Origin: a virus | Lineage: Duplodnaviria; Heunggongvirae; Uroviricota; Caudoviricetes | Reading direction: 5' to 3' (one strand) | Virus record (IMG/VR): IMGVR_UViG_2534682222_000015 | Location: 1-20,866 of that record | DNA length: 20,866 nt | Part shown: piece after piece, positions 5,732 to 16,886 of the stretch | Position numbering within the stretch: position 1 is the stretch's first letter | Layout of the letters: each line of letters begins with the position of its first letter | Made by a program: the position numbers and the translations under genes | The notes under the pieces: generated by a model | Databases searched by the model: none | The model's input: the letters and a program-made list of their open reading frames with translations, nothing else | What the model was told of the DNA's origin: nothing

Positions 5732-6115
5732 TTAGAAGGGAATTGAATCGTCGTATTCAGGATGATTTTGATGATTGCTACTTTGCTGCTGTTGGCTGTT
5801 TCCTGAGGTTGCAAATCCAATCTTTGCATTCAGTAATTCAAGAGTGATTGATTGACCATTTTGCCCCTGATAAACATCAACCCTGATGTTTTCTCCGGTA
5901 ATTTCCACAATGCCACCTTCAACAAGAACGCTACGGTAGTAATCCGCTTGCGCTCCCGGCTTGGCAAATACAACGGCGCTGTAGTTTGTCCATTCTTTCT
6001 TTTTTGTCTGGCGATCGTAATACTGAACGCCAGCACGGATGTTGAATCCGATATTTTCCCCGGCCTGAAACTCTCTTGCGGGCTTGTTTAGTCTTACAGT
6101 AATCGAATGTGCCAT
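5732..6115 (-). CDS. ssb: Single-stranded DNA-binding protein (phage SSB; acidic C-terminal tip …EYDDSIPF)
   Basis: 127-aa ORF ending in the DD(S/D)IPF tail characteristic of bacterial/phage SSB; directly downstream of erf. Confidence 0.7.
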   Translation of the reverse strand: MAHSITVRLNKPAREFQAGENIGFNIRAGVQYYDRQTKKKEWTNYSAVVFAKPGAQADYYRSVLVEGGIVEITGENIRVDVYQGQNGQSITLELLNAKIGFATSGNSQQQQSSNHQNHPEYDDSIPF

Positions 6116-6720
6116 TAAGCAGCCGCTCCTTCTAATTCATCTCGTCTGATGTTGTAAACGTCCTGCGCTTTGTGCTGCTCCGGTGTGCCTTCGAGCATCT
6201 TCCACGCTTTGGCGAACGCCTGTTTAAGCTCTTCTACGGTGTTTTTCTGCATTGCTGCGTCAGTGAATGCTTTTAGAACCTGTTCAGGTGTAGGTGATGG
6301 TTTTGATTGCTTTGCTGCTGCGTTCTGCTGATGTTTATGCTCGTCTGTATCTGCATCTTTCGCATCATCAATGCCGAACAAACCATTGAGGCAATACTTG
6401 CGCGCATAAGAACTTGTAGCTCCAGTAACTTGTGCAGAATCCATTCCTTTCTTGCTTTCTTCCTCTCGTGCAAGAGCGGTTGCCGTATGACTGTTTTCGC
6501 CATCGGTAATAGTTGCCGTAGCTTTCACGTAATACCGATCACCAATCAACACAACTTCATCGCTGATTGATAAAAACAGGCCATTCAGTAACGGCTTAAC
6601 GCCTTCAAGAATGTCTTCGCAGCTTCTGTATTTATATTTGCCGAATGAGTTGTACTGATTCTTTGGCGCGTTCAGATTCTCCTGAATAGCTGCCAGTCTT
6701 GCGTAAAATTCTTTGCTCAT
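6115..6720 (-). CDS. erf: Erf-family single-strand annealing recombinase (P22 Erf-like); start at MSKEFYARL…
   Basis: Sequence MSKEFYARLAAIQENLNAPKNQYNSFGKYKYRSCEDILEGVKPLL… closely resembles P22 Erf as I recall it; track ORF extends 10 codons upstream to a TTG. Confidence 0.8.
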   Translation of the reverse strand: MSKEFYARLAAIQENLNAPKNQYNSFGKYKYRSCEDILEGVKPLLNGLFLSISDEVVLIGDRYYVKATATITDGENSHTATALAREEESKKGMDSAQVTGATSSYARKYCLNGLFGIDDAKDADTDEHKHQQNAAAKQSKPSPTPEQVLKAFTDAAMQKNTVEELKQAFAKAWKMLEGTPEQHKAQDVYNIRRDELEGAAA

Positions 6721-6821
6721 ATGATTGTTCTCAGAATGGACACGGCCCAAGGAAATAACGCTGATTTAATACTTCGACTCGGGACAAATTAAGGCATACC
6801 CGCATTCCTTCGCGGTCGCCA

Positions 6822-8896: not shown

Positions 8897-8924
8897 GCCA
8901 AAAATAAAGGCCGACTATGCGGCC
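8897..8924 (-). terminator. Intrinsic terminator-like hairpin (GGCCG-loop-CGGCC + U-run) overlapping the stop of the 207-aa gene
   Basis: Inverted repeat 8909-8924 with A-run 8901-8908 on plus strand. Confidence 0.4.
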
Positions 8925-9538
8925 TCGGAAGGAAGTCCAATCATCTTATTCAAATCTTCTACCCGTAAAGCAGGAAGTGCTGTACTTGCTTTATCTGCTT
9001 CTTTTGGTAGCAACTCTTTGCTTTCAGGCCAAACTTCAATAAGTCGCTTAACTGTTGTGACTGAGTTCAAAGCAGCCCATACATTTGATTCGATATCCTT
9101 TTTCTTGGCTTCAAGTTTTTGTTGCAATGCGCAGATTTCATCAAACCTTTTTGTTATTTCGTGTTCTGCGCTAAACATGCATTTATCTTCGTTCGGAGCA
9201 GGGAGCAATATATCTTCGCCGTTGCCGTCTTTCCCATATGAAAGCCATCCAACCCTTCTGCCAGATACAGTCAGATAAATTGAAGTAGAACGAACATCGT
9301 ATGAGTAAAATGAACATCCCATCTTTCCAAGTTCTTCACTTATAGCTACCAACTTGGATGATAACTGATCCACTTCCTCAGTTTTCTTTTTACCGCCAAA
9401 CGCAATAACTCTGGCGTCAAGTGCAAGCTGGTTCTTTAACTTTGTTACTTCTTCAAGTTCAGTGAAAACCCCAGACTTAATTAAAGCGTTACGAGCGATT
9501 ATCTCTTTCATTCTCGTAGTTAAGCGGATTGATGACAT
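8915..9538 (-). CDS. Hypothetical protein (207 aa from MSSIRLTTRMKEII…), translationally coupled to N; occupies the sieB-like slot
   Basis: GAGAGGA RBS; only 11 nt after N stop; AT-rich; track ORF extends 20 codons further upstream into N. Confidence 0.6.
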   Translation of the reverse strand: MSSIRLTTRMKEIIARNALIKSGVFTELEEVTKLKNQLALDARVIAFGGKKKTEEVDQLSSKLVAISEELGKMGCSFYSYDVRSTSIYLTVSGRRVGWLSYGKDGNGEDILLPAPNEDKCMFSAEHEITKRFDEICALQQKLEAKKKDIESNVWAALNSVTTVKRLIEVWPESKELLPKEADKASTALPALRVEDLNKMIGLPSEAA

Positions 9539-9549
9539 ATTAATTCCTC

Positions 9550-9876
9550 TCAAATAAGTGGTTTGCTGCCTAATTTCATTTTCTGGCGACCAACACAAGT
9601 CACCCCCATTTCACTGCGTGGCTTGCTGTACCATGTGCGCTGATTCTTGCGCTCAATACGTTGCAGGTTGCTTTCAATCTGTTCGTGGTATTCAGCCAGC
9701 ACCGTAAGGTCTATCTGATTCAGTGCGCTTTCTACTCGTGATTTCGGTTTGCGATTCAGCGAGAGAATAGGGCGGTTAACTGGTTTTGCGCTTACCCCAA
9801 CCAACAGGGGATTTGCTGCTTTCCATTGAGCCTGTTTCTCTGCGCGACGTTCGCGGCGGCGTGCTTGTGCATCCAT
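9550..9876 (-). CDS. N: Antitermination protein N (lambda-like, 108 aa)
   Basis: MDAQARRRERRAEKQAQWKAANPLLVGVSAKPVNRPILSLNRKPKSRVESALN… matches lambda N from memory; AGGAG RBS; nutL upstream. Confidence 0.9.
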   Translation of the reverse strand: MDAQARRRERRAEKQAQWKAANPLLVGVSAKPVNRPILSLNRKPKSRVESALNQIDLTVLAEYHEQIESNLQRIERKNQRTWYSKPRSEMGVTCVGRQKMKLGSKPLI

Positions 9877-12918: not shown

Positions 12919-13323
12919 ATGCCAGGACAAACCAAGCAAGTAAACACCGGCATAAAGGCCGGTGACAAGTTCGAAACCGTATATCCATTTATCTTCGTAT
13001 GCACAGATTATCAGTCTTATGACGGCAACGTGCATACCGATGAGCGCTGGATTGGCGGTTGTCACAAAAATTATGAGCCAGCCGATTGTGGTTATGGTGA
13101 TCAGTGTTTTTACACCGCTGATGCTGAAGGAAAGAGAATTCTTGAGGTTCTGGCAGTGGTGGAAATGCCAGGCAACTGGCAGCGCAGAATCATTTATTCG
13201 TGCCACCTCATAGAGCCTGAAGGCAAGGAGAGGAAAGGAAGGAAGGCTTACACAGTCACCGAATCAAGGTTTTTAAAAATGTCTACTGGTTACTTCGCTG
13301 ATTACGAAGTAGAGGAGGCTTAA
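12919..13323 (+). CDS. Hypothetical Cys-rich protein (134 aa) between cII and the replication initiator
   Basis: AGGAG RBS; starts right after cII; 7 Cys residues; track ORF 12712..13323 overlaps cII upstream of this start. Confidence 0.55.
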
Positions 13324-13469
13324 TGACAAAACCACTCAGTCCTTACCAGGACAAAATTCACAAACACATACTACGTGATCGCTTCCTGTCCAGCTTCAAG
13401 CAGCCTGGTCGATTCCGGGCTGAGTTGGAAAAAGTGAAGCTGATGCAGAAGGAGAAAGGTCATGAGTAA
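13323..13469 (+). CDS. Hypothetical small protein (48 aa; [21 protein letters not shown]…)
   Basis: GAGGAGG RBS; TAATG overlap with upstream stop and 8-nt overlap with O-like start. Not in ORF track. Confidence 0.35.
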
Positions 13470-14322
13470 TCTTGCAACCGTAACACATTTAAGGCCTTCA
13501 CAACGGCCTGTGGAGCGTCGTGTGGCAGAAGTTGAAGATGGTTATACCCGTCTTGCAAATGCCCTGTATGAAGAGCTTATCGGCGCAGATTTAACGAAAA
13601 ATCAGAGCAAGGTTGCCCACGCCATATGCCGTAAAACATACGGCTACGGTAAAAAGATGGATCGCATCTCTGATAGTCAGTTAGCTCAAATTACCAGGCT
13701 GCCAAGACAGAAGGTAAACAAGGCCAAGAATGAGCTTATCGCGATGAAGGTTATCCTTCGCGAAGGCCAGCAAATCGGGCCTAACAAGAACATCGAGGAA
13801 TGGCAAATAGAAGGGTGTCACTACTCTGGTGATAATGTCACTGCATTGGTGACAAAAAGTGTCACCAAAACGGTGACAGCGCTGTCACCAAAACAGGGAC
13901 ACACAAAAGAAACTATTACAAAAGAAAAAAGAAATAATAAAAACACTATGTCCGAAAGTGTTCGGACGGAGTGTGAAAAATCACATGACCGTCACGAAGA
14001 AACCGACAAGGCATTCGAGGAAATATTCTGGTGTGCAGGCATGCGGAAAGCCGGGAAGAAAAACGCAGCTTCGGCATTCAGAACACAGTTCAGGGAATGG
14101 CGTAAAACTACCAGGGGTACGGCAAGCGAGTTTGCCACGATGCTGGCAGAAGACATCGCATGCAGGAATGGTAAGCAGTTCGGATTCGACAGGTTGTTAC
14201 CATCGAGCTACCTGAACGGTCAGCGCTGGAACGACGAAAAGCCAGAAACCATTCAACCACAATCCAAACCATCATCCGCAATCACCGTATCGAAAACTGG
14301 CTACGTGTTTTTCGACAGGTGA
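13462..14322 (+). CDS. O: Replication initiator, lambda O-like N-terminal domain (286 aa)
   Basis: …[58 protein letters not shown]…GPNKNIEEW… parallels lambda O N-terminus from memory; contains iterons internally. Confidence 0.8.
13815..13950. repeat. ori: Putative replication origin: GGTGACA / TGTCACC iteron dyads (13828-13841, 13848-13866, 13872-13889) followed by A/T-rich tract (13905-13950), inside the O-like gene
   Basis: Repeated ggtgaca…tgtcacc units seen directly; lambda-type ori organisation (iterons + AT-rich) within the initiator gene. Confidence 0.65.
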
Positions 14323-14325
14323 ACC

Positions 14326-14433
14326 ATGAAATCAAAAATCAAATCGCTACTGGTCGCTGGTTATAACCACGGCTGGTTAAGTATTTCGTTTGTCGATTTC
14401 TGGTTTAAAAATCTCAATCTGAGGGAATCATGA
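14326..14433 (+). CDS. Questionable small ORF (35 aa; MKSKIKSLLVAGYNHGW…) between O-like gene and HNH gene
   Basis: AGGTGA 5 nt upstream of ATG; hydrophobic; low confidence. Confidence 0.2.
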   Translation: MKSKIKSLLVAGYNHGWLSISFVDFWFKNLNLRES

Positions 14434-14924
14434 TGAGCCTTGAAGTTGGAGAATATATACCTGGTTATGAGGGTAAATACTCTGTAACCAAAGACGGTCG
14501 TGTTTATTCACATTTAAGAGGCAGGTTTTTGAATCCATCTCCGGATAACAATGGTTATCTAAGAGTCACTTTGTGTTCCGATGGGATTCAGAAGACGTTA
14601 AAAGTTCATCGTCTTGTAGCTCAATTATTTATCCCAAATCCGTATTGCAAGCCAGAAGTAAATCATATCAACGGCGACAAATCGGATAACGCCATTTGGA
14701 ACTTGGAATGGTGTACCTGCTCAGAGAATTTAAAACATGCTTTTAGCATCGGACTGAAAAGCGCAAAGGGAGTTTTTAATGGTAGGGCAAAACTATCTGA
14801 AACTGATGTGATTGATATCAGGAATTCTGTTGGTATGAAACTAAGCGAACTATCCACTAAATACGGAGTGAGTGAAATGCAAATTTCCACAATCCGCAGA
14901 GGAAACGCATGGAGGCACCTTTGA
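14430..14924 (+). CDS. Free-standing HNH homing endonuclease (NUMOD4-like N-terminus GYEGKYSV…, HNH motif …VNHINGDKSDNAIWNLEW…)
   Basis: 164-aa ORF with the classical HNH_3-type motif; AT-rich; inserted between initiator and helicase genes, overlapping the helicase start by 16 nt. Confidence 0.8.
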   Translation: MMSLEVGEYIPGYEGKYSVTKDGRVYSHLRGRFLNPSPDNNGYLRVTLCSDGIQKTLKVHRLVAQLFIPNPYCKPEVNHINGDKSDNAIWNLEWCTCSENLKHAFSIGLKSAKGVFNGRAKLSETDVIDIRNSVGMKLSELSTKYGVSEMQISTIRRGNAWRHL

Positions 14925-16801
14925 GTCCATCAGAACTTAGCGACCTGCTTTGGGCGCAGGTTGACAGGGTGGCTCCGCACCTGTTGCCAAACGGCAAGAA
15001 AGAGGGGCATGAGTGGGTTGCCGGTAACGTCAACGGTGACAAGGGAAACAGCCTTAAGGTCAACCTTAGCGGCAATAAAAAATGGGCTGATTTCGCTGAG
15101 GGAGACGGCGGTGACATACTTGATTTGTGGATGTCATGTCGTGGAATTAACCTGCATCAGGCTATGCAGGAAGCGAAAGCATTTCTCGGTATCAAGGATG
15201 ACGATCACCATTTCGATGCCAAACGTGAGAAGAAATTCTCCAGACCTGATCGCAAGAAAATCGCCCGCTACGTTACCAGAACAGAATCCCATCTTGAGTA
15301 CCTGCAATCGCGTGGCATATCGCCAGAAGTCGTAAAGCGCTACGAGGTTGTCAGCGGCAAGGTGTGGAATGGAGAGCGGGAACTGGATGCTCTGGTGATT
15401 CCGTACAAACGCGATGGTGAGTTGTTGCAGGTCAAGCGAATCAGCACTGAGCGCCCGGACGGGAAGAAAGTCATTATGGCAGAAGGTGATTGCGAACCTT
15501 GTCTGTTCGGATGGCAGGCTCTGGACGCTGGCGTGAGGGCGGTTGTACTTTGCGAAGGCGAAATTGATTGTATGAGCTATGCGCAATACGGCATCTCGGC
15601 GTTATCCGTGCCGTTTGGTGGCGGGAAAGGCGCTAAGCAGCAGTGGATTGAGTTTGAGTATCACAATCTCGACAGGTTTGAGGAAATATTCATCTCGATG
15701 GACGTTGATGATGTTGGTCGTGAAGCCGCAAGGGAAATCGCAAGCCGACTCGGTGAACATCGTTGCCGTCTTGTTACTCTGCCGTACAAAGACATCAACG
15801 AATGCCTGATGAACGGTGTTACCGAGGATGAAATCTGGCAGTACATCGGCACGGCATCCTACTTCGATCCTGAAGAACTCTACAGTGCGCGAGAGTTTTA
15901 CCAGGACACTATCAACGCTTTCTACGGCAAGCAGCAGTATCTGTTTAATCCACCGTGGGAATCTCTGGCAGATAAATTCCAGTTCCGTGAGGCAGAGTTG
16001 ACGTTGGTCAATGGTGTGAACGGTCACGGAAAAACGGAGGTTGTCGGGCATATGGCACTTGAGGCAATGCGTCAGGGTGTGAAGACGTGCATCGCGTCAC
16101 TTGAGCTGAAGCCTGGTATTCTCCTTAAGCGCCTTACCCGTCAGGCGACGTGCTGCAAGATTCCGCCAGTGCTGGAAATTGACTCTGCATTTAAATTTTA
16201 TGACGAAAGACTTTGGGTGTTTGGCCTGACCGGAACGGCGAAAGCCGACAGGCTGATCGAAATATTCGACTACGCTCGCCGCCGATACGGCATCCAGTTA
16301 TTCATCATCGACAGCCTGATGAAATGCGGCATAGGTGACGATGACTATAACGGGCAGAAAGCATTTGTTGACTCGATTTGTGACTTCAAAAACAAAACAA
16401 ACTCCCACGTCATTCTCGTTACTCACTCCAGAAAAGGAGACAGCGAAGAAAAACCAACCGGGAAAATGGACGTAAAAGGCTCTGGAGCGATAACAGACCT
16501 GACAGACAACCTTTTTATCATCTGGCGTAACAAGGCTCGCGAGAGAGCGTTACAGAGAGTTCAGAGTGGTGAAAGGATGTCAGAGAAGGACGAACAGCTA
16601 CTGGCATCTCCGGCATCTGTTTTGATGCTTGAAAAGCAACGTAACGGCGAAGGTTGGGAAGGTGGTGTCCCGTTGTTCCTTGACGAGCAATCGCACCAGT
16701 TCCTGCAACTTGAATCAGGATCGCCATATAGCTACATCGCCAATATGCCGAAATCGGAATATGACGAGGCGTGGCGACAGGAAAACGTGACGGAGTATTA
16801 A
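14909..16801 (+). CDS. Fused primase (Toprim) - DnaB/RecA-type helicase (630 aa)
   Basis: Toprim-like acidic motifs (…VLCEGEIDCMS…, …SMDVDDVG…) in N-terminal half; Walker A GVNGHGKTE and Walker B LFIIDSL in C-terminal half. Confidence 0.75.
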   Translation: MEAPLSPSELSDLLWAQVDRVAPHLLPNGKKEGHEWVAGNVNGDKGNSLKVNLSGNKKWADFAEGDGGDILDLWMSCRGINLHQAMQEAKAFLGIKDDDHHFDAKREKKFSRPDRKKIARYVTRTESHLEYLQSRGISPEVVKRYEVVSGKVWNGERELDALVIPYKRDGELLQVKRISTERPDGKKVIMAEGDCEPCLFGWQALDAGVRAVVLCEGEIDCMSYAQYGISALSVPFGGGKGAKQQWIEFEYHNLDRFEEIFISMDVDDVGREAAREIASRLGEHRCRLVTLPYKDINECLMNGVTEDEIWQYIGTASYFDPEELYSAREFYQDTINAFYGKQQYLFNPPWESLADKFQFREAELTLVNGVNGHGKTEVVGHMALEAMRQGVKTCIASLELKPGILLKRLTRQATCCKIPPVLEIDSAFKFYDERLWVFGLTGTAKADRLIEIFDYARRRYGIQLFIIDSLMKCGIGDDDYNGQKAFVDSICDFKNKTNSHVILVTHSRKGDSEEKPTGKMDVKGSGAITDLTDNLFIIWRNKARERALQRVQSGERMSEKDEQLLASPASVLMLEKQRNGEGWEGGVPLFLDEQSHQFLQLESGSPYSYIANMPKSEYDEAWRQENVTEY

Positions 16802-16831
16802 ATGACCATCTACATCACTGAGCTTGTAACA

Positions 16832-16861
16832 GGGGCTATTTACACAGTAGCCCTTTTTTAT
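16832..16861 (+). terminator. Intrinsic terminator after primase-helicase gene (GGGCTA-loop-TAGCCC + T6)
   Basis: Hairpin 16833-16853 followed by ttttttat. Confidence 0.6.
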
Positions 16862-16886
16862 TGGATTAAGAACGAGGGGGATCCTG

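Follow-up and report, generated by a model that had tools for sequence, protein, structure and literature searches.

A probable free-standing HNH homing endonuclease gene at the 5' end of the primase-helicase gene in lambdoid phages

Why does a small nuclease gene sit among the replication genes of a lambdoid prophage, at a junction that is unoccupied in most of its relatives? We addressed this question in a window (the whole stretch of DNA analysed) of 20,866 nucleotides (nt), positions 1 to 20,866 of IMG/VR virus record IMGVR_UViG_2534682222_000015, which represents a lambdoid prophage integrated beside ybhC (the lambda attB region) in an Escherichia coli-like chromosome. A preliminary description of this DNA had placed an HNH homing endonuclease gene at 14326-14924, between the replication initiator and primase-helicase genes. 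On the basis of sequence comparison and a structural model, we conclude that 14430-14924 is probably a free-standing, I-HmuI-like homing endonuclease gene with NUMOD4, HNH and helix-turn-helix (HTH) parts. It is predicted to be specialised for a single site in Enterobacterales lambdoid phages, namely the opening codons of their T7 gp4-like primase-helicase gene, right after a conserved open reading frame (ORF) of 35 amino acids (aa). The genes and protein domains concerned are as follows.

13462-14322, + strand: lambda O-like replication initiator (Pfam Phage_rep_O, E 1e-37)
14326-14433, + strand: 35-aa ORF, ES18 gp60-like, left flank of the insertion (phrog_21848, E 4e-26)
14430-14924, + strand: HNH endonuclease ORF, 164 aa (Pfam NUMOD4 and HNH_3; phrog_59, E 7e-57)
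14454-14573, + strand: NUMOD4 N-terminal beta-sheet DNA-binding module, aa 9-48 (Pfam PF07463; model strands E17-58)
14601-14732, + strand: HNH beta-beta-alpha-metal catalytic domain, aa 58-101 (Pfam PF13392; I-HmuI alignment)
14661-14666, 14700-14702 and 14727-14729, + strand: HNH catalytic codons for N78-H79, N91 and N100, respectively
14790-14909, + strand: C-terminal three-helix (HTH-like) DNA-binding domain, approximately aa 121-160 (model helices; I-HmuI C-terminal alignment)
14921-16801, or from 14909, + strand: T7 gp4-like primase-helicase (Toprim_2, AAA_25/DnaB_C; Pfam, PHROG)

An I-HmuI-like endonuclease gene

The AT-rich 164-aa ORF of HNH/NUMOD4 type was recovered as first described: it lies on the + strand, ends at 14924 and scores above the Pfam gathering cut-offs for both NUMOD4 (44.1 bits; cut-off 23.4) and HNH_3 (37.2 bits; cut-off 24.8). 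Its start had to be moved. The interval 14326-14924 cannot be a single ORF because its 599 nt are not a multiple of 3; position 14326 is the ATG of the separate 35-aa ORF, and the HNH ORF begins at 14430. PGAP already labels the gene 'NUMOD4 motif-containing HNH endonuclease'. With 39.8% GC overall and 36% at third codon positions (versus 46.8% and 49% for the O gene and 50.5% and 56.5% for the helicase gene), the composition of the cassette is foreign.

The only sequence match of the protein in the PDB was I-HmuI (1u3e; E 3.8e-14, residues 10-151). The AlphaFold2 model, built from 60 homologues, has a predicted local distance difference test (pLDDT) score of 95.5. In it, a beta sheet at the N terminus is followed by a beta-beta-alpha core and, at the C terminus, by three helices (residues 124-131, 138-145 and 149-156), for which the structural matches to HTH folds were weak. 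The best Foldseek match was again I-HmuI (1u3e_M; E 2.2e-9, prob 1.00, 167 aligned columns, TM 0.59), and the second was I-PpoI, also a beta-beta-alpha-metal enzyme. Residues H79, N91 and N100 align with H75, N87 and N96 of I-HmuI, so that the catalytic His (general base), the structural Asn and a metal-binding Asn are all present, and they are invariant in 119-120 of 120 homologues. The degenerate HNH motif that the preliminary description had considered was not found, N78-H79, N91 and N100 all being invariant or nearly so in those homologues. We judge the gene to be intact because its catalytic residues are conserved among homologues and the model is confidently I-HmuI-like. The ratio of nonsynonymous to synonymous substitution rates (dN/dS) of the HNH gene between lineages is 0.09-0.18, which points to purifying selection on the protein and maintenance of its function.

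Several features characterise the gene as free-standing. It has its own start and stop codons and is out of frame with the helicase gene, and no promoter-like or terminator-like site was found within it. An Rfam scan of the window detected no group I intron and no other family. A group I intron or intein context was ruled out by the empty Rfam scan and the separate ORF.

Many phages have an HNH gene for packaging (PMC3592412), and an HNH protein of the HK97 gp74 type would act with terminase in cos cleavage and packaging. The chance that the present gene is of this type is close to nil, and we rejected it on position and domain content. The gene sits in the replication module, no terminase is present in the window, and the family differs (NUMOD4 plus HNH_3, I-HmuI-like), with no zinc-ribbon CxxC pairs.

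The insertion site and the helicase start

We aligned the window with the corresponding regions of phages Sf101, mEp043 and ES18 and with nine E. coli alleles that lack the HNH gene ("empty" alleles, as opposed to "occupied" ones). In Sf101, mEp043, SEN22, ES18 and others, the match to the O-to-helicase region is broken into two parts, and the records span 491 nt less there than the window does. These alignments gave the insertion boundaries, whose mapping the preliminary description had proposed, to the nucleotide:

14436-14926, + strand: 491-nt segment missing from empty alleles, between helicase codons 2 and 3 (nucleotide alignments)
14434, + strand: left-boundary substitution, T if occupied and C if empty, with G in one empty allele (allele alignment)
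14878-14924, + strand: 3' end of the HNH gene, forming a new helicase translation-initiation region (AGAGGA then ATG 14909, or GGAGG 14911-14915 then TTG 14921)
14930-14932, + strand: Ser codon TCA to the right of the insert, AGT in E. coli-type empty alleles

The empty allele reads ...GAGGGAATC ATG ACG, directly followed by CCA AGT GAA CTT..., and the window allele reads ...GAGGGAATC ATG ATG, then the segment 14436-14926, then CCA TCA GAA CTT.... The empty junction of Sf101 and mEp043 is ...GAGGGAATCATGACGCCAAGTGAACTTAGC.... The substitution at 14434 turns helicase codon 2, ACG, into HNH codon 2, ATG. On the right side, some empty alleles have TCA or TCT at the Ser codon; these belong to Enterobacter- and Pantoea-like lineages (L036, L039). 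Because Enterobacter-/Pantoea-like empty alleles (L036) use TCA, we read TCA at 14930-14932 as a remnant of the donor flank, which suggests a donor-derived co-conversion tract of 6 nt. A search of the flanks for single-nucleotide differences linked to the presence of the HNH gene, as would mark a longer tract, found none besides 14434 and 14930-14932.

The primase-helicase gene is the host of the insertion, at its 5' end, and the O-like gene is an upstream neighbour outside the mobile element. The HNH gene does lie between these two genes, as had been described, but it does not abut the O gene exactly because the conserved 35-aa ORF intervenes. This ORF, which encodes MKSKIKSLLVAGYNHGWLSISFVDFWFKNLNLRES, carries the name gp60 in the annotation of phage ES18. 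Its TGA stop and the ATG of the following gene share bases as ATGA; in empty alleles that following gene is the helicase gene, and the two are directly adjacent. The length, frame and ATGA overlap are the same across phages of Escherichia, Salmonella, Cronobacter, Enterobacter and Pantoea, and the ORF is found in all relatives, whether or not they bear the HNH gene. Its position suggests a small partner of the O/primase-helicase system. The ORF is frequently missed in annotation.

Judging from the allele alignments, the HNH gene uses the ribosome-binding site (RBS) and ATG that serve the helicase in empty alleles, and the helicase start is replaced from within the 3' end of the cassette. Two start codons are candidates. 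From ATG 14909, the helicase gene overlaps the HNH gene by 16 nt, as first proposed, and encodes 630 aa. From TTG 14921, the overlap shrinks to 4 nt (TTGA), and the product has 626 aa, equal to the length from empty alleles. PGAP picks the equivalent of TTG 14921 in five E. coli genomes, and the predicted pairing with the anti-Shine-Dalgarno sequence is -9.3 kcal/mol for TTG 14921 versus -6.0 kcal/mol for ATG 14909. For annotators, this means that the helicase start is uncertain and that the 35-aa gene is missed. More broadly, the arrangement shows that an element can occupy the start of an essential gene without cost, the old start being taken and a new one supplied.

The E. coli and Enterobacter variants of the HNH gene are 74% identical overall but agree completely (100%) in the final 47 nt, and the Pantoea variant has a separate AAGGAGG and ATG in place of this 3' initiation region. 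Since the cassette carries the only RBS and start of the essential helicase, and since these 47 nt are frozen between variants, the cassette may be addictive, in the sense that imprecise loss would be lethal. It might also set the dosage of the helicase and serve as a weapon against the replication modules of lambdoid phages with empty alleles. This combined proposal is speculative and, in our estimate, rather unlikely to be correct. If true, the cassette would destroy the empty-allele replication modules of competitors in mixed infections or upon superinfection of a lysogen.

One occupied allele departs from this structure. In E. coli elppa4 (NZ_CP083512.1; L004:7990-8030), the left junction reads ATGACGCC followed directly by TGAGCC. 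This allele retains four extra empty-allele bases (CGCC), which put the HNH gene out of frame with its ATG, and PGAP gives a shortened 155-aa HNH protein. The allele may be a copy in decay, or the insertion event may have been resolved differently here.

Distribution and spread of the cassette

This helicase gene is present in about 296 of the 5426 complete E. coli genomes that we surveyed. Among these 296 or so, the site is occupied in five and empty in about 290. It is also occupied in 4 of the best 80 IMG/VR contigs (76 empty) and in none of the 26 species-representative Enterobacterales genomes with this helicase. At the DNA level, no record of the phage collection carries the HNH gene. 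The comparison of relatives called for in the preliminary description, which had raised the case of a gene present at the same position throughout, was thus clear: empty alleles, with initiator-side and helicase genes adjoining as in Sf101, mEp043 and ES18, form the great majority. They were the rule in E. coli, in the contigs and in all 26 representatives.

The excess of empty alleles bears on a possible role as a replication accessory, in which the nuclease would assist O and the primase-helicase, for instance by making a nick at the origin from which replication begins. In favour of such a role are the place of the gene inside the replication module and its translational link with the helicase gene. 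Against it, more than 95% of the near-identical modules, including those of Sf101, mEp043 and ES18, function in the absence of the gene, and the composition of the gene is foreign. We regard this role as highly improbable.

Where the gene is present, its site is constant. The cluster representative P0001 is 99% identical to the window protein and has entries in 363 index blocks of the protein collection; in all ten contexts inspected, the primase-helicase follows it immediately. In two of these ten, an HTH_36-type initiator replaces O and the HNH site is unchanged, so the element is tied to the helicase 5' end and not to the O gene. Homologues with 62-80% aa identity occupy the same junction in Cronobacter sakazakii, Enterobacter roggenkampii, Pantoea and metagenomic phages. 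Because such diverged homologues hold the same junction, the comparison indicates that the element is specific to the helicase 5' end and that the HNH lineage is old at this site. The synonymous divergence (dS) of the HNH gene (0.64-0.85 for the window versus L009 and versus L018) is lower than that of the adjacent helicase gene, which is saturated, and this points to transfer between diverged phages.

The 499-nt HNH segment of 16 occupied alleles has three haplotypes, two segregating sites (S=2, both singletons) and a nucleotide diversity (pi) of 0.0005. The adjacent 1500 nt of the same 16 alleles have 15 haplotypes, S=74 and pi=0.0123. If the HNH segment varied at the density of the flank, the number of variable sites would be as low as observed with a Poisson probability of 7e-9. 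We did not use pi of the left flank, as unrelated O alleles and the 4-nt shift in E. coli elppa4 distort it. In most cases, the flank closest to that of an occupied allele belongs to an empty one; one such pair (L006 occupied, L027 empty) has no differences over 1869 nt of the helicase gene. The window helicase itself is 98.7-99.2% identical to E. coli alleles, empty and occupied alike. The 12 nt that follow the right end of the insert show five haplotypes, each of them also found in empty alleles, and the five E. coli carriers differ in their immunity, O and nin regions, with no fewer than four such backgrounds among them. Together, these patterns indicate recent spread of the cassette onto many flank haplotypes. 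The recent insertion proposed in the preliminary description therefore stands for the E. coli-type pool, but not for the HNH lineage as a whole, given its age at the site.

Ancestral presence followed by repeated loss was rejected as the main explanation: diversity in the insert is about 25-fold below that of the flank. Repeated loss is also disfavoured by the sequence of the empty site, as restoring CG...CCAAGT by deletion would need several exact substitutions.

We interpret the locus as follows. The HNH gene, having no promoter of its own, would be transcribed from the early-right operon and translated from the RBS and ATG that the helicase uses in empty alleles. When an HNH-carrying and an HNH-free phage or prophage share a cell, the enzyme would nick or cut the empty allele at or near the junction of the small ORF and the helicase gene. 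The break would be repaired by recombination, with the HNH-carrying allele as template and with the possible help of ERF or Red-type recombinases encoded nearby; the window prophage encodes an ERF recombinase at 6115-6750. In this way the recipient would gain a copy of the 491-nt cassette and, with it, only a very short stretch of co-converted flank. The insertion would split the target site, and the 3' end of the cassette would provide a new Shine-Dalgarno sequence and start codon, so that the essential helicase is still made. The homing interpretation offered in the preliminary description is supported by the intact HNH motif, by empty sites being the rule and by the population pattern of recent spread.

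Five observations weigh against homing by an active enzyme. The I-HmuI metal ligand Asp74 is replaced by Asn78 in this protein; as Asn is invariant at the aligned position in 120 of 120 homologues, the change is probably a family trait rather than decay. The window copy has a private substitution, N41 (14552), where all other copies have K41. The frameshifted HNH start in E. coli elppa4 shows that decay happens. Occupancy is low (2-5%), unlike what would be expected for unopposed drive. Finally, frequent lambdoid recombination could in principle move a neutral cassette without endonuclease activity.

This last point can be extended to a cassette that is passive cargo, with an inactive or irrelevant endonuclease, shuffled by general lambdoid recombination alone. 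Mosaicism is extensive in lambdoid replication modules, recombination could reassort the standing variation of the flanks, and one copy, that of E. coli elppa4, has a damaged start. Such shuffling would require repeated crossovers within 12 nt of the insert, it would leave four other diverged lineages keeping the same site to be explained, and a dN/dS of 0.09-0.18 with invariant catalytic residues argues for selection on the protein. We consider passive cargo improbable.

Somewhat less improbable, though still at long odds, is an exclusion or defence nuclease carried as a moron. It would cut superinfecting relatives with empty alleles, and its spread would be a by-product or the result of ordinary recombination, not drive. 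The low occupancy fits this proposal, as do the position beside an essential gene of competitors, expression from a prophage early operon and the match of the PADLOC 'HEase' models to the HNH protein. Lactococcal phages, moreover, have I-HmuI-like HNH genes with demonstrated marker exclusion (PMC12724721). Against the proposal, a lysogen represses its early-right genes, which makes defence in the prophage state doubtful, and tight site fidelity with near-zero diversity on many flanks is what homing predicts. The same cut would give both exclusion and homing, so the difference is one of emphasis more than of mechanism.

Related elements and neighbouring genes

Most of the known free-standing HNH homing endonucleases come from virulent phages (T4, T5, SPO1-like and lactococcal phages). 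I-HmuI of Bacillus phage SPO1 (PDB 1U3E) shares with the present protein the NUMOD4 beta-sheet module, the HNH core and the C-terminal helical DNA-binding domain, and the catalytic His and Asn residues align. Unlike the present gene, I-HmuI is encoded in a group I intron of the DNA polymerase gene. The identity between the two proteins is just ~26-30%, Asp74 of I-HmuI corresponds to Asn78 here, and the target gene and type of host phage differ. Nicking is a putative activity of the present protein.

The arrangement resembles that of T4 mobE, a promoterless free-standing HNH gene whose product nicks the neighbouring nrdB of T2 and which is inherited by gene conversion (PMC2790892). As with mobE and other free-standing phage HNH genes (mob genes, F-Tfl of T5), the present gene is promoterless, lies between co-transcribed genes beside an essential gene of DNA metabolism, and varies in presence among close relatives. 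In tblastn searches, endonucleases of T5-like phages were ~43% identical to the HNH protein. The differences are that the present host is a temperate lambdoid phage or prophage, that the site lies between codons 2 and 3 of a primase-helicase gene, and that the inserted gene takes the helicase start codon and supplies a replacement initiation region. Gene conversion by MobE was shown by experiment; for the present element it is predicted.

I-HmuI-like HNH genes of Skunavirus cluster by insertion site, vary in presence and show marker exclusion (PMC12724721). The homologues described here likewise hold one site across genera. Their hosts are lambdoid phages of Gram-negative bacteria, their insertion site is another one, and exclusion in their case is conjectural.

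The same helicase gene also carries an unrelated element. In Stx2 and O157:H7 prophages, the primase-helicase has ~968 aa versus 626 (L028:2833-5703 in E. coli O157:H7 ECP19-198; also matching Stx2 phages, as well as L052 and L053). The difference is an in-frame insertion of ~330 aa after GHGK of the Walker A loop (between GHGK and T) that begins with Cys, ends with His-Asn followed by Thr, and matches Hint and LAGLIDADG. From these signatures, we identify it as an intein with a homing endonuclease. Like the HNH gene, it is a homing element in this primase-helicase gene; unlike it, it is in frame and is removed by protein splicing, and its nuclease family and site are unrelated. Because two unrelated elements, HNH gene and intein, both target this gene, the helicase is a recurrent target of selfish nucleases.

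Our literature search found no description of this element or its site. The epsilon34 paper mentions a different HNH fusion, in the early-left operon. The present element occurs in temperate E. coli lambdoid phages, with natural data that show many independent transfers and very short co-conversion tracts. The culturable phages with empty sites (mEp043, Sf101 and ES18) and the carrier strains (such as E. coli TUM1880 and 19AR1321) offer a convenient system for studying homing, marker exclusion and the mosaicism of replication modules.

Further, different HNH genes (HNH_3 or AP2-type) are scattered in the nin region of related prophages, downstream of the helicase gene, with up to three or more in a single prophage:

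L005: 11784-12371, 13664-14230 and 16363 onwards
L007: 11084-11479
L004: 13112-13636
L014: 7603-8151
L149: 5455-6066
L150: 5887-6414

It seems that HNH genes often settle in the early-right operons of lambdoid phages. Upstream of the O gene, the early-right operon of the window contains the following genes:

Upstream of 12919: cro and cII-like genes (cII-like as read from the translation)
Approximately 12919-13323, + strand: 134-aa gene, function not assigned (phrog_30464, E 1e-94)
13323-13469: DUF2740 gene

The 134-aa gene, between cII and DUF2740, has no Pfam or PADLOC match. Its slot (~12919-13323) is only a short gap in Sf101 and mEp043 and is filled by an unrelated 178-aa gene in Enterobacter relatives. 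It looks like a second variable moron slot of the same operon.

In the early-left region of the prophage, a gene at 8915-9598 (- strand) matches nucleotide modification associated domain 5 (Nmad5; E 2e-70), a family likewise annotated in the HNH-carrying prophage of strain TUM1880. Directly past the helicase stop and ahead of ninB, a strong terminator-like hairpin lies at 16831-16865 (+ strand), with TTTTATT after a stem of 10 bp, at the place that tR2-type terminators take in lambda. Within the O gene, the region 13850-13970 combines a cluster of inverted repeats (TGTCACCG... / GGTGACA) with a very strong AT skew, and a lambda-like ori is annotated at the matching place in ES18. This region is probably the iteron region of the origin.

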